Positions 5,672 to 44,757 of a stretch of DNA of 64,000 bases are shown here, piece after piece; within the stretch, counting starts at the first letter, position 1, and the number at the start of each line of letters is the position of its first letter. A model generated the notes under the pieces. That model searched no databases. It saw only the letters and a program-made list of their open reading frames with translations, and was not told where the DNA came from. Source of the stretch: Candidatus Thiodiazotropha sp. (GTDB lineage Bacteria; Pseudomonadota; Gammaproteobacteria; Chromatiales; Chromatiaceae); the NCBI GenBank assembly GCA_040507035.1, contig JBEVVR010000034.1, positions 28,589 through 92,588 on the forward strand. The letters run 5' to 3'. Made by a program: the position numbers and the translations under genes.

Positions 5672-5697
5672 GAAGCGGTCCACCCGAGGAGGTATTG

Positions 5698-6366
5698 ATG
5701 AAAACAAACAGAAAACTGGTAAAGGCAGTGATTGCCAGCCTGTTGTTTGGCTGGCTGGTGTCGAGCTGCACCACGACCGACAGTGCGATGCAAAAAGAGG
5801 CCGCCGTAACTGGCGCAAAGGCTGATGAAAAGATGGCCCCCGCAAAGCCACAAGGCGTCAGATCCCCCAGCATGTTGGCCAACACCTGCGCCGGCTGCCA
5901 TGGCACCGACGGCGCCAGTGCGGGGGATGCCATGCCGATCATCGGTGGCCTGGAGAAGGAGTATCTGCAGATCGTATTGGCCGAGTACAAGAGCGGCGAA
6001 CGAGATTCTACCATCATGGGCCGTATCGCCAGGGGCTACTCCGATAACGAACTGAAAGCGATTGCCTCCTATTTTGCGGACAAGCCATGGATCTCAAGCC
6101 CGGCCAAAGCTGATAAAAAGCTGGCGGCGATAGGCAAAAAGATTCATGAAAAGCGGTGTAAAACGTGTCATGAAGATGGTGGCAGGGTACAGGAGGATGA
6201 TGCTCCCCGATTGGCTGGACAATGGCCAGATTTCACCCTGATCTACCTCAAGGATTGCCACAAAAAGGGCCGGCGTTGTCAGCCGAGAAAAATGGGCAAA
6301 CGAGTCGCTGAACTCTCGCAAAAAGAGTTGCAAGCCATGGCTCACTACTATCTGAGCGAGAAATGA
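5698..6366 (+). CDS. fccA: Diheme cytochrome c subunit of flavocytochrome c sulfide dehydrogenase, predicted lipoprotein
   Basis: CAGCH and CKTCH heme motifs, 'STIMGRIARGYSD', position directly upstream of fccB, lipobox-like LVSS-C. ATG 5698 follows a GAGGAG RBS. Confidence 0.8.
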   Translation: MKTNRKLVKAVIASLLFGWLVSSCTTTDSAMQKEAAVTGAKADEKMAPAKPQGVRSPSMLANTCAGCHGTDGASAGDAMPIIGGLEKEYLQIVLAEYKSGERDSTIMGRIARGYSDNELKAIASYFADKPWISSPAKADKKLAAIGKKIHEKRCKTCHEDGGRVQEDDAPRLAGQWPDFTLIYLKDCHKKGRRCQPRKMGKRVAELSQKELQAMAHYYLSEK

Positions 6367-6376: not shown

Positions 6377-7663
6377 ATGGCTAAACTGACACGTAGAAAC
6401 TTTATCAAGACTACAGGCGCTTGTGCGGCGCTTGGTACCGCAGCAGCTATCAGCCCTGCTGTATTAGCTAAAAGCGCCAAAGGCCGTGTAATTGTTATCG
6501 GCGGTGGTTATGGTGGTTCTATCGCGGCCAAGTATATAAAAAAGGCCGATCCCTCGATCGATGTCACCTTGATTGAGAAAAACACCCAGTATGTCTCCTG
6601 CCCGCTGAGTAATGAGGTGTTGGGTGGGGAGCGTGACATCGGCAGCGTCACTTTCAACTATAAGGCAATGAGCCAGAACCACAGTATCCAGGTGGTACAC
6701 GATGAAGTGGTTGAGATCGATGCCACCAACCATAAGGTAAAGGTTGCAGGTGGCAATCAGTACCAGTACGACAAACTGGTCGTCTCACCGGGGATCGACT
6801 TCCGTTTTGAGATGATCGAAGGCCATAGTGCCGCGCTGGCCGAGAAGATTCCCCATGCCTGGAAGGCGGGACCTCAAACCAACCTCCTGCGTAAACAATT
6901 GATGGCGATGAAGGATGGCGGTGTCTGTTATATCGCAGCACCCCCCAATCCCTTCCGCTGCCCACCCGGTCCCTATGAGCGTGCCGCGCAGATAGCCCAC
7001 TACTTCAAGCAGCAGAAACCCAAATCGAAAGTCATCATTCTGGATGCCAAGGACAAGTTTTCCAAGCAGGGCCTGTTCATGCAGGGTTACAAGAAGTTCT
7101 ATGGCGATACCATCGAATGGGTCAGCGGTGCCAACGGTGGCATCATCGAAGGGATCGATGCAGACAACATGACCCTGGTGGGCCAGGTAGACGAGTACAA
7201 AGGCGATGTCCTCAACGTCATCCCCGCGCAAAAGGCAGGCAAGATAGCGCAGATGGCGGGACTGACCGACACTTCTGGCTGGTGCCCGGTCAACCAGGGA
7301 ACTTTCGAATCCAACATACATAAGGACATCTATGTCATCGGTGATGCCAGTATCGCCGGCAAGATGCCAAAATCGGGTTATGCCGCTAATTCACAGGGCA
7401 AGGTCTGTGCTGCTGCAATTGTCGCGACACTTAATGGTGAACCGCCGGGTGAGCCTTCCTACGTGAACACCTGCTACAGCATCATCTCACCCGAATGGGG
7501 TATCTCGGTGGCTGCAGTCTATCAGCTGGTCGAGGGTGAGATTGTGGGGGTTAAGGGCGCAGGGGGTCTCTCCCCCATGGATGCATCCGCGGAATCAAGG
7601 GCAATCGAAGTGCAGTATGCGCGCAGCTGGTTCAAGAACATCACTTCAGACATGTTCACATAA
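6377..7663 (+). CDS. fccB: Flavocytochrome c sulfide dehydrogenase, flavoprotein subunit
   Basis: Tat signal TRRNFIK, GGGYGG FAD motif, YVSCPLSN, PFRCPPGPYERA, PKSGYAANSQGK, NTCYS. Confidence 0.92.
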   Translation: MAKLTRRNFIKTTGACAALGTAAAISPAVLAKSAKGRVIVIGGGYGGSIAAKYIKKADPSIDVTLIEKNTQYVSCPLSNEVLGGERDIGSVTFNYKAMSQNHSIQVVHDEVVEIDATNHKVKVAGGNQYQYDKLVVSPGIDFRFEMIEGHSAALAEKIPHAWKAGPQTNLLRKQLMAMKDGGVCYIAAPPNPFRCPPGPYERAAQIAHYFKQQKPKSKVIILDAKDKFSKQGLFMQGYKKFYGDTIEWVSGANGGIIEGIDADNMTLVGQVDEYKGDVLNVIPAQKAGKIAQMAGLTDTSGWCPVNQGTFESNIHKDIYVIGDASIAGKMPKSGYAANSQGKVCAAAIVATLNGEPPGEPSYVNTCYSIISPEWGISVAAVYQLVEGEIVGVKGAGGLSPMDASAESRAIEVQYARSWFKNITSDMFT

Positions 7664-7705
7664 TCAAAAGATTCAGGAAGAGTAGCAATTAAAACAGGCA
7701 AGTTT

Positions 7706-7730
7706 AGCGCCGTTATGCGGCGCTTTTTTT
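7706..7730 (+). terminator. Intrinsic terminator of the octaheme-fcc operon
   Basis: agcgccg-ttatg-cggcgct followed by a T run. Confidence 0.8.
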
Positions 7731-7933
7731 CCCAATATATGGGATAGATATTTTCCGGTAATAACAGGTGATCGTGACATGCTGAATGCCCCCCCTACAG
7801 GGGGGCATCACACATATCATGTATTCAAAAAACAGACCAGACTTCTATATATTTGTTATAAATCTACGCATCAACTATTCCCTCTATCCATATTTTATCT
7901 TGCTCGGGTTGCAAGTAGGTTAAATCACCCTGA

Positions 7934-8848
7934 TCAACCGTGGCTCTGCATCGGCATTTCGGGCGACTTTTCCTCGTCCTGTTGCTGAGTCATCATCTTG
8001 GTCTGTGCCCTCACAAGACGCGACATCGCGGAGATATCCCGATCGTTGAGAGAAAAGGCCGCATCTACCCAATCATGGGCAATATCCAGTAACTCCTGTT
8101 TCTCCAGAGGCAGCACACGATTACGCATGTTGAGAACAGACCGCCTGGTGATATTCGATTTATTGAGCCGCTTGATAAAAGACCTGAGAGCAAGCTCACC
8201 CTCACCAGGATCGGCAACCATATCGACAATGCCCATCTCATAGAGCTGCTCCGCTGTGTAACCTTTGGCGTTTACTATCATCCGCTCCACCAACGCTGGG
8301 GAGATTCGCCTGGCGAGGAAGGAGTAGGCCCCCATGCCTGGGAACATGTTGAACACGACTTCGGGAAATTTAAACATCGTGCCAGCTTCGGCAATGATGT
8401 AGTCGCTGGAGAGTGCCGCCTCGAAGCCAGCACCCAATGCTGTCCCGGTTACCAATGAAATGGTGCGAACATTGGCATTGAGATTGACGAAATTGGAATA
8501 CAGCACATCGATGCTCAGATCAGCATATTCTTGCAGGGTTTGCCGGTCACCTGATTTGATCATCTCGACAAAGAACTTGAGATCGCCGCCAAGATTGAAG
8601 ATTCCGGGTACATCGGATGCAAAAACCAAAAAATCAATTTCAGAGGTTGACTCCCTGTTGTTGAGATATTTACTGGCATAAGATTGGAAGTTGTTGATAT
8701 CTTTCAGCAACTGCGGCGAAAAACAGGGAATTGCACCGGGATCCATGGCGAATGTAAGGGTCTTGTAGCTCTCATCATAACGGACATTGAGGGTGTCGTA
8801 GGTAAGTTCGGACAATGTATTTGAGGGTACGGCTTTGAGCATTTTCAT
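7934..8848 (-). CDS. rpfF: DSF synthase, crotonase/enoyl-CoA hydratase family (RpfF-like)
   Basis: PCFS..L..DI, FNLGGDL, GFEAAL and PEV (two catalytic Glu), FPGMGAYSF, WVDAA and MSRLVRAQ match the RpfF pattern; adjacent to an rpfC-like kinase. Confidence 0.85.
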   Translation of the reverse strand: MKMLKAVPSNTLSELTYDTLNVRYDESYKTLTFAMDPGAIPCFSPQLLKDINNFQSYASKYLNNRESTSEIDFLVFASDVPGIFNLGGDLKFFVEMIKSGDRQTLQEYADLSIDVLYSNFVNLNANVRTISLVTGTALGAGFEAALSSDYIIAEAGTMFKFPEVVFNMFPGMGAYSFLARRISPALVERMIVNAKGYTAEQLYEMGIVDMVADPGEGELALRSFIKRLNKSNITRRSVLNMRNRVLPLEKQELLDIAHDWVDAAFSLNDRDISAMSRLVRAQTKMMTQQQDEEKSPEMPMQSHG

Positions 8849-9237
8849 TTCCTCTAGGCGTAGATGTTATCGAGTCTGGTGTTTGATATGTTTAGCATTC
8901 CATCGCGAGAATAAATGCGAAGGTGGTTTTATCTTAGGCCTTGCCACCCTAGGATAGAAACAGCATTTCATGAAATGGTTAAAAGAGTGCGTCGTCGTAG
9001 CGATGTGATCGTGAACCATTTCTGCTTTCCTTGGGAAGGAAAATCCGATAAGCAATTGATCCTGGGCAATATAACTTCCCATTTATCGATTATGTAGGAA
9101 ATTAATTCTCATACCAGGCATAATTTACACTATTTACAGCCGCTATCATTGTTCTATAAATTCACAAAGGTGACATTTATAGTTCCGTAAGGCGGCCCTG
9201 TAGAACAGGGATTCAGAAACTTAGGGGTAGAGAGGCC

Positions 9238-11805
9238 ATGGCTGGCAATATGTTGAAAGAGGTATTTAGACTGCCCAGACTCAACTTCCTGTCAAAGGGG
9301 TTGAGTGATGAGGCTCGCCTCGAATATGAACAGGGTCTGATTCGACTCCTTTTTACCTTTATCGTCTTTACCTATCTGCTGGTTTCCGATCTGACCAACC
9401 CCTTGGAAAGCACCCACTCCACAGCCACATTCCTCGCAGCCGGTTACGAGATTTTTTCTATCCTGATTCTGTTGACCTTTATCATGATCAAACAGGGATC
9501 AAGGCTACGCAAGATTATCACCATGTTGGGTGACCATTCGATGACTTGCCTGGCCATGTATGGTGCGGGTGAGGTTGGCGCCCCTCTGTTCACCGTCCTG
9601 CTCTGGATCACTGTCGGCTATGGCGCACGCTTCGGTAACAACTACCTCTACCTGGGCATGCTGTTATCCACATCGGGTTTTTTCGTTGTGATCAACACAA
9701 CTCCCTTTTGGTTAGAACACCCTGCAGTTGGTTACGGATTGATCGTCACCAACATTATCATACCGATATTTGTATCCAAGATACTCGGTCAATTGGTAGA
9801 GGCAAAGGCAACGGCAGAAGCGGCCAATCAGGCAAAGGGTAGATTTCTTGCGAACATGAGCCATGAGATGCGCACGCCCTTGACCGGTATCATCGGTATT
9901 TCACAGCTACTGAAAACCGAAAACCTGGCAAAACGGATCGAAAAAAAGATCGATACCATAGGCTCATCTGCGAAACATCTGCTTACCCTGATTGATGATG
10001 TCCTGGATTTTTCGAAAATCGATGCGGGTGAGATCAAGATTGAACATCAGGAGTTTGATCTGCATGCACTGGTAACCACCGTCAGCGCCTCCCTCGAGCC
10101 GATTGCCCGCGAAAAGCAGATCAGCCTGATGACTCATATCTCTACCGATGTTCCATTCAACCTGCTTGGTGACCACCACCGCATCCAGCAGGTACTGAAC
10201 AATCTTGTCGGCAATGCCATCAAATTCACTCATCAGGGCTATGTTGATATCAGGGTCAATCCGTTGAACACGGCTGACTCCAAGGTAAATTTACGCTTCG
10301 AGGTTATCGATACGGGTATAGGTATCGCACAAGAGGGATTGAAAAATCTATTTCAGCGCTTTAACCAGATCGACGACTCGATTACCCGGGAGTATGGCGG
10401 TTCGGGCTTGGGCACAACGATCTCCAAAGAACTGGTCAACTGCATGGGTGGGGATATCTACGTAGAGAGCACCCTGGGGAAAGGCTCTCGGTTCTACTTC
10501 GATCTACCTCTGGAAATACCCGATTCCGCGAAGGAACAGAGCTACACAGGACATACCACAATAACCTATACCAACAGCCTGCAGTTCTATAATCGGATCA
10601 ATCAACCGCTTAAGCTTTGGGATATAGGCAATGACGCTGTTAGTAGTGTTGAGGAACTGACTCACCATGTGGCAGAAACCACAGCAAATTCTGATCAACC
10701 GCCACTGGTACTCCTGGATGCGGAGCATATCGGCGAAAACCTTGAGTCGCTGACAGACAAATTAAGGGATGCAGCCAGTGACCAGGTCCATCTGATACTG
10801 ATCGATACCGACACTAGATTTCAGCCATTCGAGATTCCTCCAGGCATAGATGCCATCGTCTATGACTTGGAAAACCGAAGACAGCTCTATAACGCCATAC
10901 ACACCGCATTCCTCGACACCACGCTGCCTGAGGGTGTGCAGGCAATCGACAGCTGGAATCAATCGCAGACCCAAGAAAAACTGAAAATTCTTGTGGCTGA
11001 GGATACCGCGGTCAATCGCCTGATTCTCGGTGAGATGCTTACCAAGGCCGGCTTTGAAGTCGAGTTGGTCGAAGATGGAGAGAGCGCGCTGAACAAATTC
11101 GATGAGATTGATTTTGACTTGGCGATCCTCGATATGCAGATGCCGCGTATCGGCGGACTGGATGTCATTCGTGAATACAATGCCGGCTATGGTCTGATTC
11201 GAAAGATCCCTTTCATTGTGCTCACGGCGAACATCTCCAAGGAGGCGAAACTGCAGTGCCAGGAAGCCGGTGCCGATGCCTATCTGCAAAAGCCATTAGA
11301 CATTAAAGCGTTGATCAATGAGATACATCGCTTGACGGATCATGAAGACAAGATATCTGAAGCTCCAGCCGCTTACAGGAGCATCACCAAAACTACACCC
11401 TTTACCTCCAAATCGCCGCAATACCTGAATAGGGACACCCTCGACGAATTGACCCGGTTAAGCAGCCGTGATGACTTTTTCGAGGAACTGGTGAATAACT
11501 TCCTTACCGATGTCTACAGCTGTATCGACCGCATGGAGATAGCGATCATGGGTGCCGATATTACCCAGATCATCGACGATGCCCATGCAATCAAAGGTGC
11601 CGCCGGCAATATCGGCGCCACCCTTCTTTTCAACAAGGCGAGTATGCTGAACCGCTCCACGACTGAGGAAATAAGAAACAATGGAGCCTCACATCTAAGT
11701 GAGCTGACAACCATCATCGATAAAACCAAAAAGGCATTGAAACAGTACCTTGAGGATAATCACATCGAGATCAAGTTGATCAACCGCGAAGGACGCGTTG
11801 ACTAA
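9238..11805 (+). CDS. rpfC: Hybrid sensor histidine kinase, RpfC-like (TM sensor-HisKA-HATPase-REC-HPt)
   Basis: Multi-TM N-terminus with RpfC-like '[11 protein letters not shown]' and '[16 protein letters not shown]'; [13 protein letters not shown]; GGSGLG; REC 'ILVAED...LDMQMP'; HPt '[13 protein letters not shown]'. Confidence 0.82.
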
Positions 11806-11909
11806 ATCTCCCATCCCACCCCTTGGTAGAAGCTGCCGTTGACCAGCCTCGGACTCGCATCACAAGGCACAAACAGACCTCTCCCTGCTGCAAATAATTG
11901 AATTGTGTT

Positions 11910-11924
11910 TGATAATTAGAATCA
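11910..11924. promoter_or_regulatory. Possible Fur-like (or LysR-type) palindrome upstream of the MFS gene
   Basis: TGATAAT-T-AGAATCA matches 12 of 14 positions of the 7-1-7 Fur consensus TGATAATnATTATCA. Confidence 0.35.
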
Positions 11925-11960
11925 TATAGATTCTCTGCAAACGACCCAAAAGGGGCTTTA

Positions 11961-13145
11961 ATGTCGAATCAGATCAATCGGTTCAAGGTATTGTCTGCAG
12001 GGGTGATCAGCCTTGTCTTGATGCTTGGGATCGCCAGGTTCGCCTACACCCCCCTGCTCCCCATCATGTTGCAGCAGGCCGGCCTGGGGCTCTCGGAAGG
12101 AGGCTGGTTGACCGCCATCAACTATCTGGGCTATCTCTGTGGCGCCATCACCGCTTCACTGATCAGCGATCTGGTAGTGAAAGACCGCCTCTATCGCATC
12201 GGTCTGATCGTGGCTGTTGTCTCCACGCTGGGCATGGGCTTGACGGATAATATCTGGCTCTGGTCGTTCTACCGCTTTATCGCCGGACTGAGCAGCGCCG
12301 CGGGACTGCTGCTGGGTTCAGGTCTTATCCTGAACTGGCTGATTCGCCATGGTCATCGCAGCGAACTGGGGATCCACTTCAGCGGGGTCGGCCTGGGTAT
12401 CGCATTCGGTGCCATTGCCGTTGAACTGATGAATCACCATTTCGACTGGCGCGGCCAATGGCTGATGCTGAGTTTGATGGGTGGCTTAATGTTAATCCCC
12501 GCCTGGCTATGGCTGCCGCCACCAGACAGCAGCAAGCTTACCAACACTGGGGAAGTGCTGGTCGACACCCCGCCCAGCCGCCGCTTTCTGCTGCTCTTCA
12601 TGGCCGCCTATTTCTGCGCCGGAGCCGGGTATGTGGTGAGCGCCACCTTTATTGTCGCCATTATCGATGAGCTACCCGGTCTCCAGGGATTGGGGGCCTG
12701 GAGTTTCTTCATCCTCGGTATGGCCGCGGCCCCCGCCTGCATCATGTGGGATCTGATTGCCCGCCGTACTGGCGACATAGACGCCCTCCTCATCGCCTTT
12801 GTACTGCAGACCGTCGGGATTCTGCTGCCGGTCATGGCTGCAACGCCCTCGATGGCGATGGCGGGTGCTTTGCTGTTCGGCGGTACCTTCATCGGCATCG
12901 TCAGCCTGGTCCTCACCATGGCGGGACGTTATTATCCCACCCGCCCGGCCAAGATGATGGGTAAAATGACCATCGCCTATGGGGTGGCGCAGATCGTGGT
13001 TCCGGCCATAACCGGTGTTCTCGCCGAGCGCAGCGGCAGCTACAGTGACGGACTCTATCTGGCAGCCGCAATCATGGCCCTGGGCACACTGTTGATGGTG
13101 GGCCTTAGACTGCTCGAAAACAAAAACAACTTTAACGTTACATAA
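11961..13145 (+). CDS. MFS transporter, YbfB/YjiJ-like
   Basis: About 12 hydrophobic segments; 'GIARFAYTPLLP' and 'NYLGYL.GA' motifs. Confidence 0.85.
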   Translation: MSNQINRFKVLSAGVISLVLMLGIARFAYTPLLPIMLQQAGLGLSEGGWLTAINYLGYLCGAITASLISDLVVKDRLYRIGLIVAVVSTLGMGLTDNIWLWSFYRFIAGLSSAAGLLLGSGLILNWLIRHGHRSELGIHFSGVGLGIAFGAIAVELMNHHFDWRGQWLMLSLMGGLMLIPAWLWLPPPDSSKLTNTGEVLVDTPPSRRFLLLFMAAYFCAGAGYVVSATFIVAIIDELPGLQGLGAWSFFILGMAAAPACIMWDLIARRTGDIDALLIAFVLQTVGILLPVMAATPSMAMAGALLFGGTFIGIVSLVLTMAGRYYPTRPAKMMGKMTIAYGVAQIVVPAITGVLAERSGSYSDGLYLAAAIMALGTLLMVGLRLLENKNNFNVT

Positions 13146-13290: not shown

Positions 13291-13662
13291 TTACTCACCG
13301 GTTTGCGCCGACTTTTCCAACTCCATGGCGGTAATGCGGAACTGTTTGTCCCGTCCCTTTTTTACCGTAAAGTTGACCTTGTCATTCTCTTTGAATGTAG
13401 ATAAATCCACCCGTTTTGTAACCGGCAGATCCATGGTCATCCCCATCCATTTAAGTTCCGGAATGGGTCCGTGAGTCAGATTGATTATTCTTTTATCAGT
13501 ATCAATTTTGTGTAGAACACCCGTCCCCACACCTTCACTGACACCGCTCGCCATATCACCATGGCCATGCATACTATGTCCGCCCTGGCTGTCGCCCAGA
13601 ACCGGCATGGTGAGTAACAGGCCGGCAAATACCAATGAGACAAACTGTATCGATTTTTTCAT
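13291..13662 (-). CDS. cusF: Periplasmic Cu(I)/Ag(I) chaperone
   Basis: Signal peptide; 'NLTHGPIPELKWMGMTMD' carries the His/Trp/Met/Met ligands; start after an AGAGG RBS. Confidence 0.88.
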   Translation of the reverse strand: MKKSIQFVSLVFAGLLLTMPVLGDSQGGHSMHGHGDMASGVSEGVGTGVLHKIDTDKRIINLTHGPIPELKWMGMTMDLPVTKRVDLSTFKENDKVNFTVKKGRDKQFRITAMELEKSAQTGE

Positions 13663-13675
13663 GCTTGATTTCCTC

Positions 13676-16600
13676 TTAAGGTAGATCGGATGAGGTTTCA
13701 TCCGCTTTGTGCGAAGTCGCTGCGGCAGGCGGCAAGCGGCGCGCCTCCCAGATCAAATAGATTACGGGGACCACGATGAGGGTCATGACTGTGGTGCTGA
13801 GCATGCCGCCTACCATGGGCAAAGCAATGCGCCGCATCACATCGGAGCCAGGCCCCTCAGTGAAAAAGATGGGTAGTAGACCGGCGATGATGACAGAAAC
13901 GGTCATCAATTTCGGTCTGACGCGCAAGGCGGCGCCAGCCATAATGGTGGCAAACAGTTGCTGCCGATCCAAGGGTGGAAGTGCGCGCGCCTGCTGATCT
14001 ATATAGAGCAGCATAACCACCGCGGTCTCCACGGCGATTCCACCAAGTGCGATAAAGCCAACCGCCACGGCTACGGAAAGATTATATCCGGCGAGATAGA
14101 CCGACCATAAACCGCCCACCATTCCAAACGGGAGCGCGGTCATCACCATCACTGTGCGATCGGTACGACCAAAATGGATCATCAGCAGTACCAGAATAAT
14201 GGCGACTGCCCCTGGAATGGCTATCTTCAACCTGCTCCTTGCCTCCAGCATCTGTTCGTACTGACCGGACCAGGTAATGGCATAACCTGGTGGCAAGCTG
14301 ACTTGTTCGGCCACCTGCTTGCGGGCTGCGTCCACATAACCCCCCATATCGCGCCCGTCAATATCCACGAACACCCAGCCGGTGAGCCTGGCATCCTCTG
14401 ACTTGATCATCGGCGGGCCTTCGGCAAAGGTTATTTCCGCCAATTCGCCGAGAGGGATATGCATTCCCCCTGGGGTGGGCACAAGAACCTCCGAGAGATC
14501 CTGGACCGATTCGCGGAAGGGCCGGTCGTAACGCAGGATGATGTTATAGCGTTCCCGTCCCTGCACACTCTCCGCCACTTTCATGCCACCGAGGGCGGTC
14601 TGAATGATCGACTGAAACAGACCCAGATCGATATCCCTTCGTGCCAGCTCGTTTCGATTCGGAATTATTTCAAGATATTTCCCACCGCTGACCCGATCGG
14701 CAAATGCACTGCGGGTCCCTACCACCTCCTTGACCACGGCTTCCACATCAAGGGCGATACGTCCGATGACATCAAGATCGGCGCCGGAGATTTTTATGCC
14801 GACCGGGGTACGTATTCCGGTTGAGATCATATCCATGCGAATCTTGATGGGGTAACCCCAGCTGTTGACCAGCCCCGGTAGCTTCACCTGCTGATCCAAG
14901 CGCTTGATCAAACCATCGATATCCATATCCGGGCGCCACTGCTGCCTCGGTTTGAGACGAATCCAGCTCTCTATCATGGATATTGGCGCGGGGTCCGTGG
15001 CGGTGTCGGCCCGCCCCACCTTGCCGAATACCTGTTCCACTTCAGGCAGGGTGCGGATCAGCCGATTGGTCTGTGCCAGCACCTCCTTGGCCTTGGTGAT
15101 GGAGACCCCTGGAAGCGTGGTGGGCATATAGAGCAGCTCCCCTTCATAGAGGGCGGGCATGAATTCCGAACCAAGCCTGGATAGGGGATACCACAGACTT
15201 GCCACCCCCAGCAGCGCGACAAACAGCGTGAGCCAGCGCATGCGCATGGAGAACTGCAGGATTGGCTTGTACAACGCGACGAAAAGGCGATTTAGCGGAT
15301 TGACCTCTTCCCGGCGAATTTTGCCTCTGATCAGCCAAAGCATGAGTATCGGCACGATGGTTACCGACAGCAGTGATGCAAAGGCCATGGCATAGGTCTT
15401 TGTATAGGCCAGTGGCGAGAACAAGCGGAAGCTCTCTCCGGTAAGCGCGAACACCGGTAGAAATGAGACGGTTATGATCAACAGACTGAAGAAGAGACCG
15501 GGGCCGACCTCCTTGGCCGATTGCAGAATGGCGGCGTTGCGCGCCTTTTGGGCCACCGAATCCGGCATGTCACTGAGCTTGCGATGGGCGTTCTCCACCA
15601 TCACGATTGATGCATCCACCATCGCCCCGATCGCTATCGCGATACCACCGAGGGACATGATATTGGCTGTGATTCCCTGAGCGGACATTACCGTGAATGC
15701 ACCCAGCACACCGAGTGGAAGGGTAATGATGGCGACGAAGGCCGAGCGTGCATGTAACAGGAAGAGGATACAGACCAGGGCTACCACGATTCCCTCTTCG
15801 ATCAGCTTATGGTTTAGATAGTCAACCGCACCCCGGATCAGAGGCGCCCGATCATACACGGAGCGCAGTTCCACACCCTCGGGTAGACCGCGACGCAGGA
15901 ACTCAAGTTTTTCCTTCACTGCCTCGATCACATTCAGTGCGTTCTCCCCGGAACGCATGACCACGATACCGCCGACCACCTCGCCTTCGCCATCCAACTC
16001 CACCACTCCGCGCCTTAGTTCAGGCCCCTCCAACACCCTGGCCAGGTCCGTGAGCAATACGGGGGTGCCGTTACGTGCCCGCACCACCACCTGCTGCAGA
16101 TCATCGAGGGATGTGACATAACCCCGTGAGCGGATCATCAGTTCGGTCTCGGAGCGTTCCAATACCCGGCCTCCCACCTCCATGCTGGCGGCCTTTACCG
16201 CATCGCGCACCCTGAGCAGGGGAATGTCATAGGCGCGCAATCTGTTGGGATCGATCAACACCTGGTATTCGCGTACAAATCCACCCACGGAGGCAACCTC
16301 GGATACCCCGGGTACGGTTGCCAGTTCGAAACGCAAGAACCAGTCCTGGAGCGCACGCAGCTCGGCCAGGTCATGTTGGCCGGTCCTGTCCACCAAAGCA
16401 TATTGGTAGATCCACCCCACGCCGGTCGCATCGGGACCAAGCCGGGGTGTGGCGTTTTCGGGAAGATCCTTCTGCACCGTCGCCAATGCCTCGGCAACCC
16501 GGCTGCGCGCCCAATAGTCATCCACACCATCCTCAAAGATGGCATAGACGAAACTGGTTCCGAACATGGAGAAACCGCGTACCGCTTGCGTCTTAGGCAA

Positions 16601-16870
16601 TCCCAGCAGGGTGGTGGAGAGGGGGTAAGTCACCAGGTCCTCCACAATCTGCGGTGCCTGCCCCGGAAAGTCGGTGCGGATGATCACCTGGGTATCGGAG
16701 AGATCCGGAATTGCGTCCAAAGGTGTGCGATCGATGGCGAGCAGACCCGCCGCTGCCAGGGCCATGGTCAAGATCAACACGATCAGCTGATTGTGTACCG
16801 ACCAGCTGATCACGCGGGCAATGAAGGAGCGGGAGGGATCCTCTCCGCCAATATCCCTCGCATCATGCAT
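13676..16870 (-). CDS. cusA: Heavy-metal RND efflux permease, CusA/SilA type
   Basis: DAIPDLSDTQVI, GPDATGVGWIYQY, GIAIAIGAMVDA, YMPTTLPG, RVRPKLMT. ATG 16870 follows GGAGG. Confidence 0.93.
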   Translation of the reverse strand: MHDARDIGGEDPSRSFIARVISWSVHNQLIVLILTMALAAAGLLAIDRTPLDAIPDLSDTQVIIRTDFPGQAPQIVEDLVTYPLSTTLLGLPKTQAVRGFSMFGTSFVYAIFEDGVDDYWARSRVAEALATVQKDLPENATPRLGPDATGVGWIYQYALVDRTGQHDLAELRALQDWFLRFELATVPGVSEVASVGGFVREYQVLIDPNRLRAYDIPLLRVRDAVKAASMEVGGRVLERSETELMIRSRGYVTSLDDLQQVVVRARNGTPVLLTDLARVLEGPELRRGVVELDGEGEVVGGIVVMRSGENALNVIEAVKEKLEFLRRGLPEGVELRSVYDRAPLIRGAVDYLNHKLIEEGIVVALVCILFLLHARSAFVAIITLPLGVLGAFTVMSAQGITANIMSLGGIAIAIGAMVDASIVMVENAHRKLSDMPDSVAQKARNAAILQSAKEVGPGLFFSLLIITVSFLPVFALTGESFRLFSPLAYTKTYAMAFASLLSVTIVPILMLWLIRGKIRREEVNPLNRLFVALYKPILQFSMRMRWLTLFVALLGVASLWYPLSRLGSEFMPALYEGELLYMPTTLPGVSITKAKEVLAQTNRLIRTLPEVEQVFGKVGRADTATDPAPISMIESWIRLKPRQQWRPDMDIDGLIKRLDQQVKLPGLVNSWGYPIKIRMDMISTGIRTPVGIKISGADLDVIGRIALDVEAVVKEVVGTRSAFADRVSGGKYLEIIPNRNELARRDIDLGLFQSIIQTALGGMKVAESVQGRERYNIILRYDRPFRESVQDLSEVLVPTPGGMHIPLGELAEITFAEGPPMIKSEDARLTGWVFVDIDGRDMGGYVDAARKQVAEQVSLPPGYAITWSGQYEQMLEARSRLKIAIPGAVAIILVLLMIHFGRTDRTVMVMTALPFGMVGGLWSVYLAGYNLSVAVAVGFIALGGIAVETAVVMLLYIDQQARALPPLDRQQLFATIMAGAALRVRPKLMTVSVIIAGLLPIFFTEGPGSDVMRRIALPMVGGMLSTTVMTLIVVPVIYLIWEARRLPPAAATSHKADETSSDLP

Positions 16871-16900
16871 CGATCCTGCCTCCACTGTATCGGGCACCAC

Positions 16901-18532
16901 TCATTGCACCGCTACTCCCCCGCTCTGATCGCTATAGGGACTGTACGGCTGCTCGCCCTGCTGCACCCATAGTCGCCCGTCGCTCTCATCTTTGAACAAG
17001 CGCACCCCTTTTTCCCGGTAATAGTCACCCCTGCCATCCAACAACCATGGCTGCAACGCACTGACCAGACGGTGCAAGGCACTGCGCAAATCGCTCTCCG
17101 TGCGCGCCTGCTGCGCCTCACCGATGGCCTGTTCGGCATCCTCGAGGATCGGCCCCAGCCGGGTCTGACCGAACTTCGACCACAGCATGTTGCGAATCTC
17201 ACGGGCAGGCTGCAACTGGTCCGGCGTCACATCGTAGCCGTCGGCCAGGGCCTCGTGGAGATAGAGACCCGCATCGATCAGATGGTCAAGCATCGCCATC
17301 TGCGTCTTGCTCAGGCTTAGATCGACCAGTTCAAGTTTGAGGCGCTGAAGTTTCTGAAAAGACTCACGCAGCGCACTCTCGGAATCGATTAGAAACTGGC
17401 CGGAGACGACAATGCGTTCATCCCCCTCTATACCTTCCACAACCTCGGTGTATCCGCCACTGCTCAGACCGGTGCCTACCTTGCGTGGCTGAAAACGGCC
17501 CTCGCCGAGGGCCACCACCAGATAGGGGCCATCGGCAGCGAGCAGCAGGGCGCTGTCGGGTACCGCCAGACGACGATCCATACCCACCTCGAAGAGCACG
17601 TCGGCATAGGCGCCGGGACGTAGAAGATTGTCCCGATTATCCAGCTGCAGCCGCACCGTACCGGTACGGCTGGATCGATCCACCGTGGGATGGATGTAGT
17701 CAACACGGGTCTCGATGATCCGTCCCGGTAGGTTGGGGAGCATGACCCGAACCTGGGTAGCGTCATCGATCGCGACCAGGTCCTTCTCCGCAACCGCGGC
17801 GTTGATCCAGACCGTGTTGTAATCTTGAATCACCGCCAAGGTCTCGCCAGGGCGGACATAGCTTCCTTCCCTGACCAGCAATTCACTCAAGGTGCCCTCC
17901 GCCGAGGCGTAAAACGGCACCCGTTCCACCACCTTGCCCTTTTTACGCAGACTGGTGATGAAGGAATCGGAAACACCCAGGGCACCGAGTCTGATCGCCG
18001 CGGATTGGATACGGCTGGTGCTCTCCCTCTCCAAGGCGCTGAGATAGTCTCTTTGCGCCGCCACCAACTCGGGACTGAACAGCCGGTAGAGCAGAGTGCC
18101 GCGTTTTACCCCATCGCCGACGGCGGTTACCGCAAGGGATTCGATCCAACCGGCCACCCTGCTCGACACTTCGCTGCGCAGGCGTTCGTTCTCCGCCACA
18201 ATGCCATAGGCGCGGATACGGCGGCCGAACAGGGTGGCTTGCGGAGTGCCGTAGCGCACTCCCATGTTCTGGATAGTCTCCGGCGCTATTGTGATCAGGG
18301 CGCGATCACCGGACGCCTCATCAGCTTGCAGATCCAAGCTCGGCCCTGATTCCATCTTCACCAAATCCATGCCGCAAATCGGACAGCTTCCCATCTCATC
18401 GGCGATATAGTGCGGATGCATGGGACAGGTAAACTTTGTCTCTGCCTCCTCAGCAACCACTGTCGCCGGCATCAGCAACATGACCATCAGCAAAGTAAGC
18501 GTTGCCAGGGGTAACTGAATCGGCATCATCAA
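16901..18532 (-). CDS. cusB: RND periplasmic adaptor, CusB type, with N-terminal heavy-metal-binding domain and C-terminal extension
   Basis: 'FTCPMHP...GSCPICGMDLV' metal-binding domain, MFP core ending 'VVSGQFLIDSESAL', and about 150 extra C-terminal residues. Confidence 0.88.
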   Translation of the reverse strand: MMMPIQLPLATLTLLMVMLLMPATVVAEEAETKFTCPMHPHYIADEMGSCPICGMDLVKMESGPSLDLQADEASGDRALITIAPETIQNMGVRYGTPQATLFGRRIRAYGIVAENERLRSEVSSRVAGWIESLAVTAVGDGVKRGTLLYRLFSPELVAAQRDYLSALERESTSRIQSAAIRLGALGVSDSFITSLRKKGKVVERVPFYASAEGTLSELLVREGSYVRPGETLAVIQDYNTVWINAAVAEKDLVAIDDATQVRVMLPNLPGRIIETRVDYIHPTVDRSSRTGTVRLQLDNRDNLLRPGAYADVLFEVGMDRRLAVPDSALLLAADGPYLVVALGEGRFQPRKVGTGLSSGGYTEVVEGIEGDERIVVSGQFLIDSESALRESFQKLQRLKLELVDLSLSKTQMAMLDHLIDAGLYLHEALADGYDVTPDQLQPAREIRNMLWSKFGQTRLGPILEDAEQAIGEAQQARTESDLRSALHRLVSALQPWLLDGRGDYYREKGVRLFKDESDGRLWVQQGEQPYSPYSDQSGGVAVQ

Positions 18533-19830
18533 CCCTCCTCCATCAAAAGCGCATTGATACTGGCTGCAGCAATGGTCCGTAACGCCCGCTGTTTCGCCAC
18601 ATCCAGTGCGATCTCGGCGCGCTGAATAGCGGGGCGAATGACATCCTCCAACGAACCGTCCCCCGCTTCGTAACGTCTCCTGTTGGCTGCCTCAAGCTCG
18701 CTCAGCCGTGCGCTGCGCCTGGCAAGCGCCGCTAACAACCTGTCCGCTGTACGATAGTCCGCCACGGCCCCGTCATACTCTCCCCTGGCCTCTCGCAATC
18801 GCTGATCCCGCTCCGCCGTGGCGCTGCTAACAGCCTCCTGCGCGGCATTCAGCTTCGGTCGCTGGTTTGAAGCGGCCCAAAGCGGGACCTTGAGGGTGAA
18901 CTTGAGGGTAAGCCAGTCATCTCCATCGAAATTGGCCCCGGACTCCCGTTGCTGCCAGGCCACGCCAAAGGCGTAATCGGGGGATAACCCGGCCCTCTTC
19001 TCGTTGACCTGGGATTGCGCCACTTCCAGTTTTCGCTGCGCCTGCTGAACCGCAATCAACTCCGTCGGCTGACCCGTCCAGATCCGGGGTTCGATTGCCG
19101 GCAACGGATCATGTTCCGGAACATTGTTGAGTAGTTCTCTCAACTCCGCCTGCCAGCGCATATCTTCACCATCGAGGCCAACCACTCGCTCCTCGATACG
19201 TCCGCGTCGCACATCCAGCTCATCAAAACGCGCGTAGACCGAGCTTCCCCCTTCCATCTCGCCGCGGAGCCAAGGCTCCAGTTCACTGATAAGGTCCAGT
19301 TGTGCCGCCAATGCGGTCTTTGACTCCCTGATCCGGCGCCGCTCCGCCAACGCAGTAATCAGACGTTTTTTCAATCCGGCCAGGATCTGCAGACGTTCCA
19401 TCTGCGCCGCATCGGCCCGTGCCACATGGGTACGATGCAGGGCCTCCCGACCATCCCCATTGGGTATGGCCTGTTTAAATTCCAGGCTACGGCTGCTTGG
19501 CAGATAGCGTTCGAGATCGGTGGGATCATCGACCGGCACATTATTCAACCCAATGGTAATGCTTGGATTTGGCAGACCCAGCGCAGCATCGGAACGCAGG
19601 GTCCATTCCCTGGCGGTCGACTCGTTCTTACGAACCGCCGGGTGTTCGCGCAAACGCTCCAGCAACGCCCCGAACAGTGTCGGTTCGGCATCAGCCGCCC
19701 CGGGGCTGGTGACCGATAGGAAGATCAGCGGCCACAGCAACAGACCATGGCGAAGGTTACAGCACAGTCCAGGTCGGTCTGGAATAGAATAGGATTTACA
19801 CGACAGCTGCATCGCGTTAAGACAGCACAT
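18529..19830 (-). CDS. TolC/CusC-family outer membrane efflux protein
   Basis: OEP-like helical repeats and beta segments ('PNPSITIGLNN', 'LTLKFTLKVPLW'); first structural gene of the cus cluster. Start uncertain. Confidence 0.78.
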   Translation of the reverse strand: MCCLNAMQLSCKSYSIPDRPGLCCNLRHGLLLWPLIFLSVTSPGAADAEPTLFGALLERLREHPAVRKNESTAREWTLRSDAALGLPNPSITIGLNNVPVDDPTDLERYLPSSRSLEFKQAIPNGDGREALHRTHVARADAAQMERLQILAGLKKRLITALAERRRIRESKTALAAQLDLISELEPWLRGEMEGGSSVYARFDELDVRRGRIEERVVGLDGEDMRWQAELRELLNNVPEHDPLPAIEPRIWTGQPTELIAVQQAQRKLEVAQSQVNEKRAGLSPDYAFGVAWQQRESGANFDGDDWLTLKFTLKVPLWAASNQRPKLNAAQEAVSSATAERDQRLREARGEYDGAVADYRTADRLLAALARRSARLSELEAANRRRYEAGDGSLEDVIRPAIQRAEIALDVAKQRALRTIAAASINALLMEEG

Positions 19831-19899
19831 GAAATTTCCCCAGAATATAATCGGCTCACAATGGATCGCCCTTGTGAACAGATGTCAGCAGAAACGAAA

Positions 19900-20250
19900 C
19901 TAAGCGAGGAGTTGAATCTTAGGCGGGGGTGTTTCTACAGGGTGCTCCGGTCGTGGGGCCGTCGCGACCAGGGGGGCGGGCATGTCCATCTCCAGCAAAA
20001 CCAAGTGGCCAATTCGAGAACCCGTAAATTGCACAGCATAACCACAGAACACGCAACCCTTTTCTCCGTTGACTGACACTGTCTCGCCGCTGTCGTGACA
20101 GGGATGCTGTTCGGCAGTGAGCTCGCTATGGGGAGCTGTCGGCAAGTCACTGCCCATGGCGGTATACTGAAGCCACGCCAACGACATGGTTGCATGCAAA
20201 AGCAGCAGCGCCATGACAGATATAGCTAATGGATGTCGGTTGGGCTTCAT
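19900..20250 (-). CDS. Small exported Cys/His-containing protein (DUF2946-like) heading the metal-efflux cluster
   Basis: Hydrophobic N-terminus, HPCH and CVFC motifs, Pro-rich 'PPP' C-terminus. Confidence 0.55.
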   Translation of the reverse strand: MKPNRHPLAISVMALLLLHATMSLAWLQYTAMGSDLPTAPHSELTAEQHPCHDSGETVSVNGEKGCVFCGYAVQFTGSRIGHLVLLEMDMPAPLVATAPRPEHPVETPPPKIQLLA

Positions 20251-32312: not shown

Positions 32313-32780
32313 GTGAGGTTTAAATCTATGCATAGAAATCAAGGATACACACTGCTCGAATTGTTGGTCACTCTAGCTATAGCCGCTGTCTTGATGACCT
32401 ATGTTGTCCCCAGTTTCATGGGCATGGTCGAACGCAACAATGTAGCCGCCACCAGCAACGAACTGTTGGGTGCGCTGCTATATGCCCGCAGTGAGGCAGT
32501 GAGAATAGAGAGCGATGTCACCTTCACCCCGGCAGCCGATGGCTGGATTGTCACCGCCGCTGGTGTCGATATCGTCGACCAGTCCGTCAACAATGAAAAC
32601 GTCACTATCGCAGCCAACCTTACCGGTGGTGATGTGACCTACAACTCCAGAGGCCGCGCCGATATCACCGCGGGGGATAATCTAGAGGTCAGCTACGATG
32701 CTGTGGTGCAAAACCGTATCTGTCTCAGTCCGATAGGTCGTCCCTACATCAAAAAGGCCGATGAAGGTAACTGCCCATGA
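32313..32780 (+). CDS. fimT: FimT/FimU-type minor pilin
   Basis: Class III signal G|YTLLELL; 'ALLYARSEAV'. Confidence 0.8.
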   Translation: MRFKSMHRNQGYTLLELLVTLAIAAVLMTYVVPSFMGMVERNNVAATSNELLGALLYARSEAVRIESDVTFTPAADGWIVTAAGVDIVDQSVNNENVTIAANLTGGDVTYNSRGRADITAGDNLEVSYDAVVQNRICLSPIGRPYIKKADEGNCP

Positions 32781-33346
32781 AATCTGAACCCCATAGCCAA
32801 CCGAAAAGACACGCCCGTGGTATGACACTGGTTGAAGTACTGATCGCAGCCGTCGTGATTGCAGTCGGATTACTGGGCGTGGCATCGCTACAGATAAGCG
32901 CCCTTCAGGGTGCAAGCGACGCCCAGTATCGCGCCAAGGCCTCCGATGCTATCGCATCCTTGGCGGATCGAATACGAGCAAACCTGTCAGCGGTCCCTGA
33001 CTATACGGGAGCGATTCCAGCAGAGTCATGCGCGATTGCGCCAGATGCTCCCATGACCACTATTGAGCGCTGTGCCATGAGTCCTGACGGCAGCGTCGCC
33101 GCTGTCTCTGAATGCACTGCCGCAGATATGGCAGCCTATGATCTGTGGGAGGTCAATTGCGCACTACAAGCGACAATGCCTGGCGCGGAACTTGAGATAG
33201 TGTGCCCCGCAGCCGGCTGTGAAGAGATGTCGCCATTGACGGTAACGATCTCATGGCAAATGCAGAACAGGAATCCGGACGTGGCCACCGATACCTTCAC
33301 CATCCATGAAGTTGTCGCAACAATCTTGCCTGGAGTACAACCATGA
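32777..33346 (+). CDS. pilV: Minor pilin PilV, copy 1
   Basis: G|MTLVEVLIA; 'GLLGVASLQ'; 'LADRIRAN'. Confidence 0.85.
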   Translation: MKSEPHSQPKRHARGMTLVEVLIAAVVIAVGLLGVASLQISALQGASDAQYRAKASDAIASLADRIRANLSAVPDYTGAIPAESCAIAPDAPMTTIERCAMSPDGSVAAVSECTAADMAAYDLWEVNCALQATMPGAELEIVCPAAGCEEMSPLTVTISWQMQNRNPDVATDTFTIHEVVATILPGVQP

Positions 33347-34173
33347 TCAGATCCACCCGCAAGCAGGCAGGTCTATCCATCATCTCCTTGATGATCGCCA
33401 GTGCAATCGGGGTTTTCCTGATTGGTGGTGCCGGAAAAATCTACCTCGACAGTAAAAATGCCTTCATTGCAAGATCGACCATCGCCGCAGCCGCTGAGAG
33501 CTCCCGGTTCGCCGTGCAGGATCTACGCCGAAACCTGGTCATGGCAGGCAGGGGCGTCACTGAACAGAATGACAATCCCTCTACTTATCTAGATCCAGAC
33601 AACAATATGAGGACCTTTCCCGCCGTTGATCCCGATAATACCGTCGCCGCAAGCTCCACCGGTATTATCGACATGGATAGCAACGACTCCAGTGCCGTTG
33701 CCGTTCGCTATGCGGAAGGACCGGCGCCTTGCGGTCAAGACGGCACCATTGACACTACGCACACCGTTCGATTCTACCGCAACGGCGATGCCGAGCTTAT
33801 CTGTCAATCCATAGAAACCGTAGCTGGCGCACTCAACACGGGCGGAGCCTTCGAGCGTGCCATGGCATCGGGTGTCGTCCTCATGCGTGCCCTCTACGGT
33901 GTGGATACGGATGCGGATGGCATTGCCAACCAATATCTGACCGCCACCGAAGTGGACAATGCCGATCGTTGGGTAAACGTGGTAACCATCAGGATTGGCA
34001 TAGTCACCAGCTCCGATACCGAAGAGCTTCCCTACACCTATCGCCCGGCAGCCGCAGAAGAGATGCGGGTGCTTGGTATGGAGCATATCGCAGCCGACAC
34101 ATCCCATTCGTTCAAGACCGCGAGCACCACCATCGCGTTGAGAAATCTAAACACCACAGTCCAGAGACAATGA
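33343..34173 (+). CDS. pilW: Minor pilin PilW, copy 1
   Basis: G|LSIISLMIA; 'RALYGVDTDADG...Y'; 'VVTIRIGIV'; terminal 'IALRN'. Confidence 0.82.
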   Translation: MIRSTRKQAGLSIISLMIASAIGVFLIGGAGKIYLDSKNAFIARSTIAAAAESSRFAVQDLRRNLVMAGRGVTEQNDNPSTYLDPDNNMRTFPAVDPDNTVAASSTGIIDMDSNDSSAVAVRYAEGPAPCGQDGTIDTTHTVRFYRNGDAELICQSIETVAGALNTGGAFERAMASGVVLMRALYGVDTDADGIANQYLTATEVDNADRWVNVVTIRIGIVTSSDTEELPYTYRPAAAEEMRVLGMEHIAADTSHSFKTASTTIALRNLNTTVQRQ

Positions 34174-34661
34174 TCATGACCATCAACCGCAAACAACTCG
34201 ATGTATGCAACCGACGCCATCAACAGCAGGGCGCGGCCCTGGTGATCGGCCTGATACTGCTCTCGGTGATCACCCTGTTAAGTGTGAGCGCCATGCGCAG
34301 CAGCAACCTCGAGACAAAGATCGCCGTCAATCATCAATTCAAGGAGTTGAGTTTCCAGGCGGCGGAAAATGCTTTGGCACAGCTGACCGGACCCGATCCT
34401 GAAATACTGGTACCGAACGCCATCTGTGCGGAACAACCGAATCCTGGTTACTACACATCGTCGGGAGTCACTCACCAACCCGATTTGAGCGCGGATGTCA
34501 CCATGCAGATGAGAGAGATCAGCCCACCTGGAAAGTACAAATTCTCCGGTTTTGGTCTGAATGTGGTCACCGTGTTGTACAAGGCCGACGCTCTGGGAAC
34601 GGTTGCAGACAACAACACCCAGACGACCAACCGCATGGAAGTCGCGCTGATCAGGAATTGA
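34170..34661 (+). CDS. pilX: Minor pilin PilX, copy 1
   Basis: G|AALVIGLILL; 'SFQAAENAL'; ATGA overlap with the pilW stop. Confidence 0.82.
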   Translation: MIMTINRKQLDVCNRRHQQQGAALVIGLILLSVITLLSVSAMRSSNLETKIAVNHQFKELSFQAAENALAQLTGPDPEILVPNAICAEQPNPGYYTSSGVTHQPDLSADVTMQMREISPPGKYKFSGFGLNVVTVLYKADALGTVADNNTQTTNRMEVALIRN

Positions 34662-34674
34662 GGAGTTATAGAGT

Positions 34675-37758: not shown

Positions 37759-38161
37759 GGGCTTTACCCTGATCGAGTTAATGATCGCCGTTACCATCAT
37801 AGGATTGTTAATGGCGATCGTCATACCCAATTATCAGGAATCGGTCAGACGGGGACACCGCGGTGACGGCATGGATGCGCTGACTGCCGCTGGCCACAAG
37901 ATGGAGATAGCAAAGAGCCGGCTCGGCGCTTATCCCAACACACTGGTGGCGGCCAACATCGCCGCGGAAAGTGCCGAAGGCTACTACGGCAACCTGACCA
38001 TAGCGCCTGCCACGGCAGATTGCCCTCTCACAAGCTGTTACATATTGCAGATTGATGGGCAGAATGGGCAGGAAAATGGCAATGTCACCGCCTATCGTCT
38101 CTTTTCAACAGGACGTAAAGAGCAACTGCGCGCTGGTGTCTGGGAAGAGGGTTGGGATTAG
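37730..38161 (+). CDS. pilE: Minor pilin PilE
   Basis: G|FTLIELMIAV; 'PNYQESVRRGHR.D'. Confidence 0.85.
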   Translation: MKLQTQYAHRGFTLIELMIAVTIIGLLMAIVIPNYQESVRRGHRGDGMDALTAAGHKMEIAKSRLGAYPNTLVAANIAAESAEGYYGNLTIAPATADCPLTSCYILQIDGQNGQENGNVTAYRLFSTGRKEQLRAGVWEEGWD

Positions 38162-39181: not shown

Positions 39182-39183
39182 TC

Positions 39184-40035: not shown

Positions 40036-40044
40036 GAAGTCATC

Positions 40045-40557: not shown

Positions 40558-40574
40558 GAAATGGATCCATCCCT

Positions 40575-44565: not shown

Positions 44566-44608
44566 ATCAGACCTTAACACCCCTTACAATCCCGCTCCCG
44601 AGTGCCCC

Positions 44609-44630
44609 GTAGGGTGCGGCTTGCCGCAGC
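44609..44630 (+). repeat. GTAG-type REP palindrome
   Basis: GTAG-GG-TGCGGC-TT-GCCGCA. Confidence 0.5.
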
Positions 44631-44681
44631 GCAAAAAACTAGACCCGAAAACGCCTCAACCGCTATAATTGCCCGCTTTCG

Positions 44682-44757
<76 letters not shown>

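Follow-up and report, generated by a model that had tools for sequence, protein, structure and literature searches.

In the rpf cluster of Xanthomonas, the gene encoding the enzyme that makes diffusible signal factor (DSF), rpfF, and that for its sensor kinase, rpfC, are convergent, and the cluster of X. nasturtii (locus L001) was read here as rpfB> rpfF> <rpfC <rpfG. The synthases of Burkholderia cenocepacia (DfsA, i.e. RpfF_Bc or Bcam0581) and Cronobacter (RpfF) have a different receptor, the cytoplasmic PAS-GGDEF-EAL protein RpfR. A third arrangement is that of Pseudomonas aeruginosa PA1396, a hybrid kinase described as sensing cis-2 fatty acids through a five-helix membrane input, with neither rpfG nor a cognate synthase gene beside it (PMC6536496). 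Outside Xanthomonadales and Burkholderia, DSF signalling has been established or annotated in Cronobacter (PMC4698668), Leptospirillum (PMC8357829) and cold-seep metagenome-assembled genomes (MAGs, PMC12781772), and RpfC, RpfG and RpfF were already listed in the 2014 genome paper of Thiolapillus brandeum (PMC4136832). This study describes an rpfF-like crotonase gene and an adjacent rpfC-like hybrid kinase gene in a 64,000-nucleotide stretch of 'Candidatus Thiodiazotropha sp.' DNA (contig JBEVVR010000034.1, hereafter the window). Our results showed that this pair is a genuine further member of a known and widespread family, distinguished by a lineage-specific twist, namely an unlinked rpfG and an altered sensing peptide. 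In the symbiont, the two genes quite probably form a functional DSF-family module of signal and sensor.

The crotonase open reading frame (ORF) spans 7934..8848 on the minus strand (304 amino acids (aa) from the outer ATG) and the kinase ORF spans 9238..11805 on the plus strand (855 aa). The components of the pair are the following:

7934..8842, minus strand: rpfF-like gene for a DSF-family synthase (302-aa crotonase; starting at the ATG at 8848 instead would add 2 residues)
8843..9237, no strand: divergent intergenic region (395 bp, AT-rich, 41% GC), presumed site of both promoters
9238..9807, plus strand: RpfC-type input domain (32-aa N-terminal peptide and five hydrophobic segments)
9832..10515, plus strand: kinase core, HisKA and HATPase_c (Pfam E 1e-20 and 8e-29)
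10555..10905, plus strand: pseudo-receiver domain (aa ~440-556; profile-profile comparison, no Pfam match)
10987..11325, plus strand: receiver domain (aa 584-696, phospho-Asp D632; Pfam Response_reg E 8e-23)
11485..11757, plus strand: histidine phosphotransfer (HPt) domain (aa ~750-840, phospho-His H783; Pfam Hpt E 1e-7)

By its sequence and by its modelled fold, the crotonase is a member of the DSF-synthase (RpfF/DfsA) clade and not of the generic enoyl-CoA hydratases. It displayed the Pfam domains ECH_1/ECH_2 and, when compared with all PDB chains by phmmer, its four best matches were all DSF synthases (E 5e-55 to 4e-52), i.e. Cronobacter RpfF (6dgn), B. cenocepacia DfsA (5fus), RpfF of Xanthomonas campestris (Xcc; 3m6m) and 7zq7, the next sequence match being a generic hydratase (E 1e-11). 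Likewise, an AlphaFold2 model computed from a 10-sequence alignment (pLDDT 78, pTM 0.79) retrieved DSF synthases at Foldseek ranks 1-12 (E ~1e-22, target-normalised TM score 0.86-0.89), and the level of generic crotonases was reached at rank 13 (E 6e-14). The gap between DSF synthases and the next matches thus covered 8 (fold) to 40 (sequence) orders of magnitude. A grouping with non-RpfF hydratases, considered in the first-pass annotation (made from the letters of the window alone), was seen in neither comparison. Overall identity to Xcc RpfF amounted to 37%. Among the catalytic and pocket residues listed for that enzyme (PMC9864630), both catalytic glutamates (E141 and E161), which the first-pass annotation had already recognized, were identical, together with G85, L136, G137, G169, M170, W258 and L276; G138, which is Ala in the window crotonase, was the exception. 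The synthases of Burkholderia and Cronobacter were the best matches in sequence and structure (5fus and 6dgn), yet their RpfR receptor has no counterpart in the pair, where an RpfC-type membrane kinase lies next to the synthase; no GGDEF or EAL domain, as found in RpfR-type receptors, was detected in the 64-kb window.

In the database, the sequences closest to the crotonase (92, 91 and 90% identity) came from 'Candidatus Thiodiazotropha sp.' MAGs, and more distant ones bore names derived from lucinid clam hosts. This agrees with the suggestion, made before the origin of the DNA was disclosed, of a host-associated sulfur oxidizer, since Ca. Thiodiazotropha is a sulfur-oxidizing symbiont of animals (lucinid clams). 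Considering also the one public run with matching DNA, a mollusc metagenome, the window is attributed to a symbiont of lucinid gills. The same crotonase subfamily, at 48-56% identity, occurred in Thiolapillus brandeum and in free-living or vent sulfur-oxidizing Gammaproteobacteria.

The kinase displayed the Pfam domains HisKA, HATPase_c, Response_reg and Hpt, and was collinear with X. nasturtii RpfC from the input domain through the HPt domain. It was 35% identical to Xanthomonas RpfC over the full length, a level equally observed with RpfC-like kinases of other sulfur oxidizers. The input domain comprises five hydrophobic segments as judged from hydropathy (aa 32-54, 61-88, 110-130, 136-155 and 161-189) and is homologous to the five-segment domain of RpfC: BLASTP aligned aa 15-194 with aa 5-183 of X. 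nasturtii RpfC, end-to-end over the input domain (30% identity, E 3e-27). The layout announced in the first-pass annotation (transmembrane sensor, histidine kinase, receiver and HPt, with an RpfC-like N-terminus) was thereby borne out by both Pfam and alignment. All three residues of the phosphorelay have their equivalent in RpfC. In the HisKA domain (aa 199-264, followed by HATPase_c at aa 311-426), the phospho-accepting H209 aligned with RpfC H198; in the receiver, D632 aligned with D512; and in the HPt domain, which is collinear with the RpfC C-terminus, H783 aligned with H657. The juxtamembrane autoinhibition residues were conserved as well, RpfC L172 and A178 corresponding to L183 and A189 of the window kinase. 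Neither the input domain nor the linker between the ATPase and receiver domains gave a Pfam match, even at E values up to 10. An exhaustive search of representative sequences recovered the input domain in 1813 representative clusters (50% identity, E up to 1e-3); a word-indexed search had given 4 fragments only.

One difference from Xanthomonas RpfC resides in a segment of about 120-130 aa between the ATPase and receiver domains, which is absent from the 726-aa Xanthomonas protein. A 76-sequence profile of this segment, compared by hhalign with the receiver profile of the family itself, identified it as a pseudo-receiver (probability 98.2%, E 3e-14). In that alignment, an Asp (D494) occupied the phospho-acceptor position, and the acidic pair of strand beta1 and the conserved Lys were missing. 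Among the top 150 relatives found with the input domain, half (75) measured 800-900 aa, and the segment was present in every one of these 75, indicating that the 726-aa Xanthomonas RpfC is the shorter and rarer form among those examined. The pseudo-receiver is also shared by the kinases of about 850 aa from Thiolapillus-type clusters, whose hosts have the sulfur-oxidizing lifestyle in common with Ca. Thiodiazotropha.

The gene context of the family was examined in 90 related loci, assembled from exact-protein look-ups and a metagenome scan, and classified by local tblastn; pairing and rpfG linkage were counted on those 27 metagenome loci whose downstream flank measured 3.7 kb or more. An RpfC-type kinase adjoined the crotonase in 26 of the 27 (and in all loci from exact-protein look-up), and 24 of them contained rpfG, coding for a receiver (REC)-HD-GYP protein, within about 3 kb as well. 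Identities among the linked RpfG proteins, as well as with Xanthomonas RpfG, lay at 44-56%. Four layouts were distinguished:

Layout A: rpfF> <rpfC <rpfG, the Xanthomonas order (17 loci)
Layout B: rpfG> rpfF> <rpfC, the Thiolapillus type (5 loci)
Layout C: <rpfC rpfF> <REC-HPt <rpfG <REC (L090, L097 and L100)
Layout D: <rpfC rpfF>, no rpfG within 6-10 kb (window, L088, L081-83, L091 and L096)

Layout D was seen in the Thiodiazotropha clade only, whose crotonases are at least 62% identical to that of the window. Layout C provided the nearest outgroup (crotonases 54-56% identical). As its pair is divergent too, this orientation must predate the clade, and what is clade-specific is the loss of rpfG linkage. 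The pair thus differs from the Xanthomonas rpf cluster, in which rpfF and rpfC converge, and no rpfG, rpfH or rpfB is adjacent to it. The first-pass annotation was correct in describing a divergent pair unlike the Xanthomonas cluster, with neither rpfG nor rpfB next to it (none was found in the window by Pfam, or by tblastn for RpfG). Thiolapillus-type clusters also differ from the clade in that rpfG is kept within about 3 kb, as rpfF> <rpfC <rpfG or rpfG> rpfF> <rpfC. The designation 'Xanthomonas-type' in the same annotation is too narrow: Xanthomonadales represent one branch of a large environmental RpfF/RpfC(/RpfG) family.

Some relatives displayed more elaborate arrangements. In L091 (5170-11523), rpfF is flanked by two RpfC-type kinases, a divergent upstream one of 839 aa and a convergent downstream one of 685 aa, the input domain of the latter sharing 35% identity with its counterpart in Xanthomonas RpfC. 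In L090 (2142-5930), as in L097 and L100, a 611-aa REC-HPt protein is encoded between rpfF and rpfG, and a 265-aa REC protein beyond rpfG; these extra genes would make the relay of that branch more elaborate than the one of Xanthomonas. In locus L092 (8001-17059), rpfG is followed by genes for a 612-aa REC protein and a radical SAM protein; then come, on the opposite strand, one gene for a ketoacyl synthase and one for an acyl carrier protein (ACP), and finally rpfC> <rpfF. A dedicated ACP and ketoacyl synthase next to the DSF synthase point to acyl-ACP being supplied privately for the signal.

Both genes of the pair are maintained. Compared with L088, a relative at 85% identity, dN/dS was ~0.087/1.80 (~0.05) for rpfF and 0.12/1.75 (~0.07) for rpfC, ratios that are approximate since dS is near saturation, and similar values were obtained for the neighbouring fccB and MFS genes. 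Together with intact ORFs, this indicates strong purifying selection rather than decay. Alternatively, an ordinary enoyl-CoA hydratase and an unrelated hybrid kinase could have become neighbours by chance, or the pair could be a decaying remnant, and the mere name 'crotonase/enoyl-CoA hydratase family protein' given by NCBI would go along with this; yet clade membership, conserved pairing, intact ORFs and dN/dS values of ~0.05-0.07 contradict it and make such an explanation hardly credible.

In the proposed mechanism, drawn by analogy with Xanthomonas and Burkholderia, the RpfF-like crotonase would take 3-hydroxyacyl-ACP from fatty-acid synthesis and dehydrate it to the cis-2-enoyl form, and would then hydrolyse the thioester to release a diffusible free cis-2-unsaturated fatty acid. 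As in the characterised relay, this signal would be perceived by the RpfC-like kinase, through its N-terminal peptide and its membrane domain, and the kinase would autophosphorylate H209, the phosphate being relayed via D632 to H783 of the HPt domain. The output in nearly all relatives is RpfG, a REC-HD-GYP phosphodiesterase of cyclic di-GMP whose gene adjoins the pair. Since rpfG is not linked in the clade, the most likely partner of the HPt domain is an RpfG-like protein encoded elsewhere or another response regulator. With a changed sensing peptide and an extra pseudo-receiver, details of both the signal molecule and kinase regulation may depart from those of Xanthomonas.

Several observations speak against a working pair and have to be set beside those given above. 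Firstly, the window crotonase reached the broad NCBIfam model PRK08788.1 (335 bits, cut-off 177) but failed to reach the narrow RpfF equivalog NF053515 (219 bits, cut-off 550). Two controls put this into perspective: Xanthomonas RpfF passed both models, whereas the proven synthase of the B. cenocepacia signal BDSF passed PRK08788.1 only and obtained 185 bits on the RpfF equivalog, i.e. less than the window crotonase. Since a proven synthase fails too, missing NF053515 is to be read as 'not a Xanthomonadales orthologue' and not as 'no DSF synthase'. Secondly, the pair has no linked response regulator, and Pfam scans of the 48 candidate genes revealed no stand-alone one in the 64-kb window. Thirdly, among public runs a single 'mollusc metagenome' DNA run matched (6% of the words) and no RNA run did, so that no transcript data were found for the strain. 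More generally, the function attributed to the pair in the whole clade is deduced from homology to characterised systems. To these points are added the replacements in the sensing peptide and the outcome of the RpfG profile search, both considered below.

Five residues of Xcc RpfC are essential for DSF sensing, i.e. R15, D17, S18, E19 and Q22 (PMC5391125). Three of them are replaced in the window kinase (R15, D17 and S18 by E25, R27 and L28), whose N-terminal peptide is about 10 aa longer, and the two kept are those nearest the membrane (E19 as E29 and Q22 as Q32). In an alignment that took in 12 Xanthomonadales RpfC proteins, the other non-Xanthomonadales members (L084 and L086) likewise kept just E19 and Q22. 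Within the clade, the peptide was better conserved than the kinase as a whole: the window and Ca. T. lotti share 27 of its 41 residues (66%), the whole kinases being 46% identical, and the putative ligand-binding peptide displayed the clade-conserved sequence GLS-D/E-EA-R/L-LEYEQ. Such conservation fits a conserved ligand, which may be unlike the Xanthomonas one.

These replacements could also be taken to mean that the pair serves fatty-acid or membrane homeostasis instead of density signalling, with an acyl-ACP thioesterase/dehydratase and a kinase that monitors membrane lipid or exogenous (e.g. host-derived) fatty acid. The broad thioesterase activity of RpfF, countered by RpfB in Xanthomonas (reviewed in PMC9864630), points in this direction, no rpfB being present here, as does the existence of synthase-less RpfC-type sensors of foreign DSF such as PA1396 (PMC6536496). 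Yet synthase and sensor are linked tightly and widely (26 of 27 loci), as is characteristic of a signal and its cognate receptor, and the membrane-proximal sensing residues E19 and Q22 are retained along with the juxtamembrane autoinhibition residues. Homeostasis is accordingly considered an unlikely role for the module, and a signal and its receptor the preferred one.

Partners of the pair were sought in the window and beyond. In the window, the 48 candidate genes were all scanned with Pfam, which yielded no HD-GYP or AMP-binding protein and none with a GGDEF or EAL domain; five RpfG proteins used as tblastn queries matched nothing there but the kinase's own receiver domain. In relatives from the Thiodiazotropha clade, rpfG did not occur within 6-10 kb of the pair. 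A profile built from three sulfur-oxidizer RpfG proteins obtained at least 120 matches at 582 bits or higher, among which Sedimenticola, Thiolapillus and 'Chromatiaceae' were represented; none of the best 120 was named Thiodiazotropha or lay on the Thiodiazotropha contigs of 4.32, 2.35 and 1.22 Mb. The largest of these contigs is closed and is the one on which L088 is located (ENA ERZ25074796). As the Sedimenticola RpfG stands at the lower edge of the matches listed (582 bits), a similarly divergent Thiodiazotropha orthologue may lie off that list. One match, P0365 from locus L092, belongs to another lineage (kinase 35% identical, C-terminal part of the crotonase 45%).

A possible though less probable reading of these results is that rpfG has been lost from the clade and not just unlinked, the kinase signalling through a regulator other than an HD-GYP protein, or mainly binding and throttling RpfF, with an output distinct from cyclic di-GMP turnover. 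It is nested within the interpretation of a working pair, and its probability is counted as part of the latter. The divergent pair lacks rpfG in every locus of the clade (layout D), whereas the nearest outgroup has the same divergent pair with REC-HPt, rpfG and REC downstream, and the best 120 profile matches agree with a loss in that they include neither a Thiodiazotropha name nor a large contig of this genus. On the other hand, the Sedimenticola score at the edge of the matches listed leaves room for a missed orthologue, and an HPt domain with its His retained implies a downstream receiver. A still bolder version would combine RpfF/RpfC uncoupled from RpfG, a changed ligand-binding peptide, a DSF-family fatty acid of distinct chemistry and an output that departs from the canonical one. 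This combination is speculative and rather doubtful; were it true, a horizontally acquired animal symbiont might use the module to switch between its free-living stage and its intracellular one in the gill. The interpretation kept here is that of a probable working pair whose HPt domain would address a regulator encoded elsewhere.

The pair directly adjoins the sulfide-oxidation genes fccAB in the window:

5695-6366: fccA, dihaem cytochrome c (Pfam)
6377-7663: fccB, flavoprotein of flavocytochrome c sulfide dehydrogenase, FCSD (Pfam)

Upstream of the pair were found, besides fccAB, ccmH, a paralogue of EF-G, a multihaem cytochrome and a TPR protein; downstream are an MFS_4 transporter and then a cusFABC-like efflux operon. 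GC contents of rpfF and rpfC were both 0.49, and that of the spacer 0.41, the flanking fccB (0.53) and MFS_4 (0.59) genes being higher. The vicinity of fccAB would be meaningful if DSF signalling regulated, or were co-regulated with, fccAB and the multihaem cytochrome genes, and it is shared by the syntenic relative L088. However, fccB and the crotonase gene are convergent and are separated by a strong terminator-like hairpin (7706-7724, 8-bp GC-rich stem followed by a T-run). Moreover, flanks of the pair differ completely within the clade: fccAB and MFS_4 in the window and L088, prfC and SprA-related genes in Ca. T. lotti/taylori, and likewise surroundings unrelated to fccAB in L091 and L096, carboxylase genes being among those met in these other members. 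The pair thus moves as a two-gene unit, and its adjacency to fccAB means little. A functional tie to fccAB was rejected on the basis of these unrelated surroundings, a link with sulfide oxidation being very improbable, and the position beside fccAB is probably incidental. What the first-pass annotation had reported, a pair beside sulfide-oxidation genes, is exact for the window, but with a terminator in between and no conservation of the neighbourhood it carries no functional implication.

Concerning the start of the crotonase, the ATG at 8842 lies about 7 nt downstream of a GAGGAA ribosome-binding site and yields a product of 302 aa, which is also the length of database entry P0001, a 100% match to the window crotonase. 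Both the spacing of the ribosome-binding site and the length of P0001 make this start likelier than the one at 8848. By exact look-up, neither the 304-aa nor the 302-aa form matched any recorded contig. The intergenic region (8843..9237) could be aligned well to L088 only. It contained two sigma-70-like matches, no more than expected by chance, and a promoter scan of 7600-12100 gave 4 sigma-70-like sites against 7.3 in shuffled sequences. Alignment of the intergenic regions across clade members (L081 and L091) revealed no common motif. No regulator site is therefore proposed.

At the level of annotation, the family is not new: close homologues are labelled 'DSF synthase' and 'RpfC' in IMG (NCBI names being generic), and T. 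brandeum was described with its three Rpf proteins. The 'little-explored' circuit announced by the first-pass annotation is thus less so than was stated, but no paper treating a DSF system in Thiodiazotropha or lucinid symbionts emerged from the literature searches. Our comparison showed that the RpfF/RpfC/RpfG cluster occurs commonly among marine sulfur-oxidizing Gammaproteobacteria, and that most kinases examined carry a pseudo-receiver foreign to the Xanthomonas paradigm, the general picture of DSF signalling being unchanged. Lucinid symbionts are acquired from the environment, and we know of no account of the means by which they perceive density or the host. For this role, a synthase-sensor pair that is intact and under purifying selection offers a concrete and testable candidate, and the synthase is open to heterologous expression even though the symbiont is uncultured. 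The pair should be of note for symbiosis researchers, and will not surprise a DSF specialist.

Other parts of the window displayed features unrelated to the pair. A heavy-metal efflux operon (cusF-cusA-cusB-outer-membrane factor, with a 116-aa ORF; 13291-20250, minus strand, GC 0.56-0.60) lies between MFS_4 and dus. As the gap between these two genes measures only about 280 bp in the otherwise syntenic L088, the block represents either a strain-specific insertion or a deletion in L088. Two tandem clusters of type IV minor pilins (GspH/FimU-like, PilV-like, PilW and PilX) occupy 32313-38161 and 38606-43400 on the plus strand. Each of them ends in a protein of about 1000 aa, the first without Pfam match and the second PilY1-like with a VWA domain, and a ComP/PilE-like pilin follows the first cluster.

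Further along, a GH5 cellulase with a Big_7 domain (53986-55926, plus strand) and a 1446-aa protein (58254-62594, plus strand) that combines five PKD domains with two cellulose-binding domains (CBM2) and Planctomycete-type PSD/PSCyt modules (DUF1585-1595) were found, both of which are unexpected for a chemoautotrophic clam symbiont. Two stretches had a GC content below the window mean (0.52): 44000-50000 (0.42-0.44), which encodes a protein of unknown function, a DUF4377 protein and a molybdopterin oxidoreductase together with its 2Fe-2S subunit, and 56000-58000 (0.36), with an IS1595-type transposase fragment at 56458-57153. Both are likely to be acquired islands.

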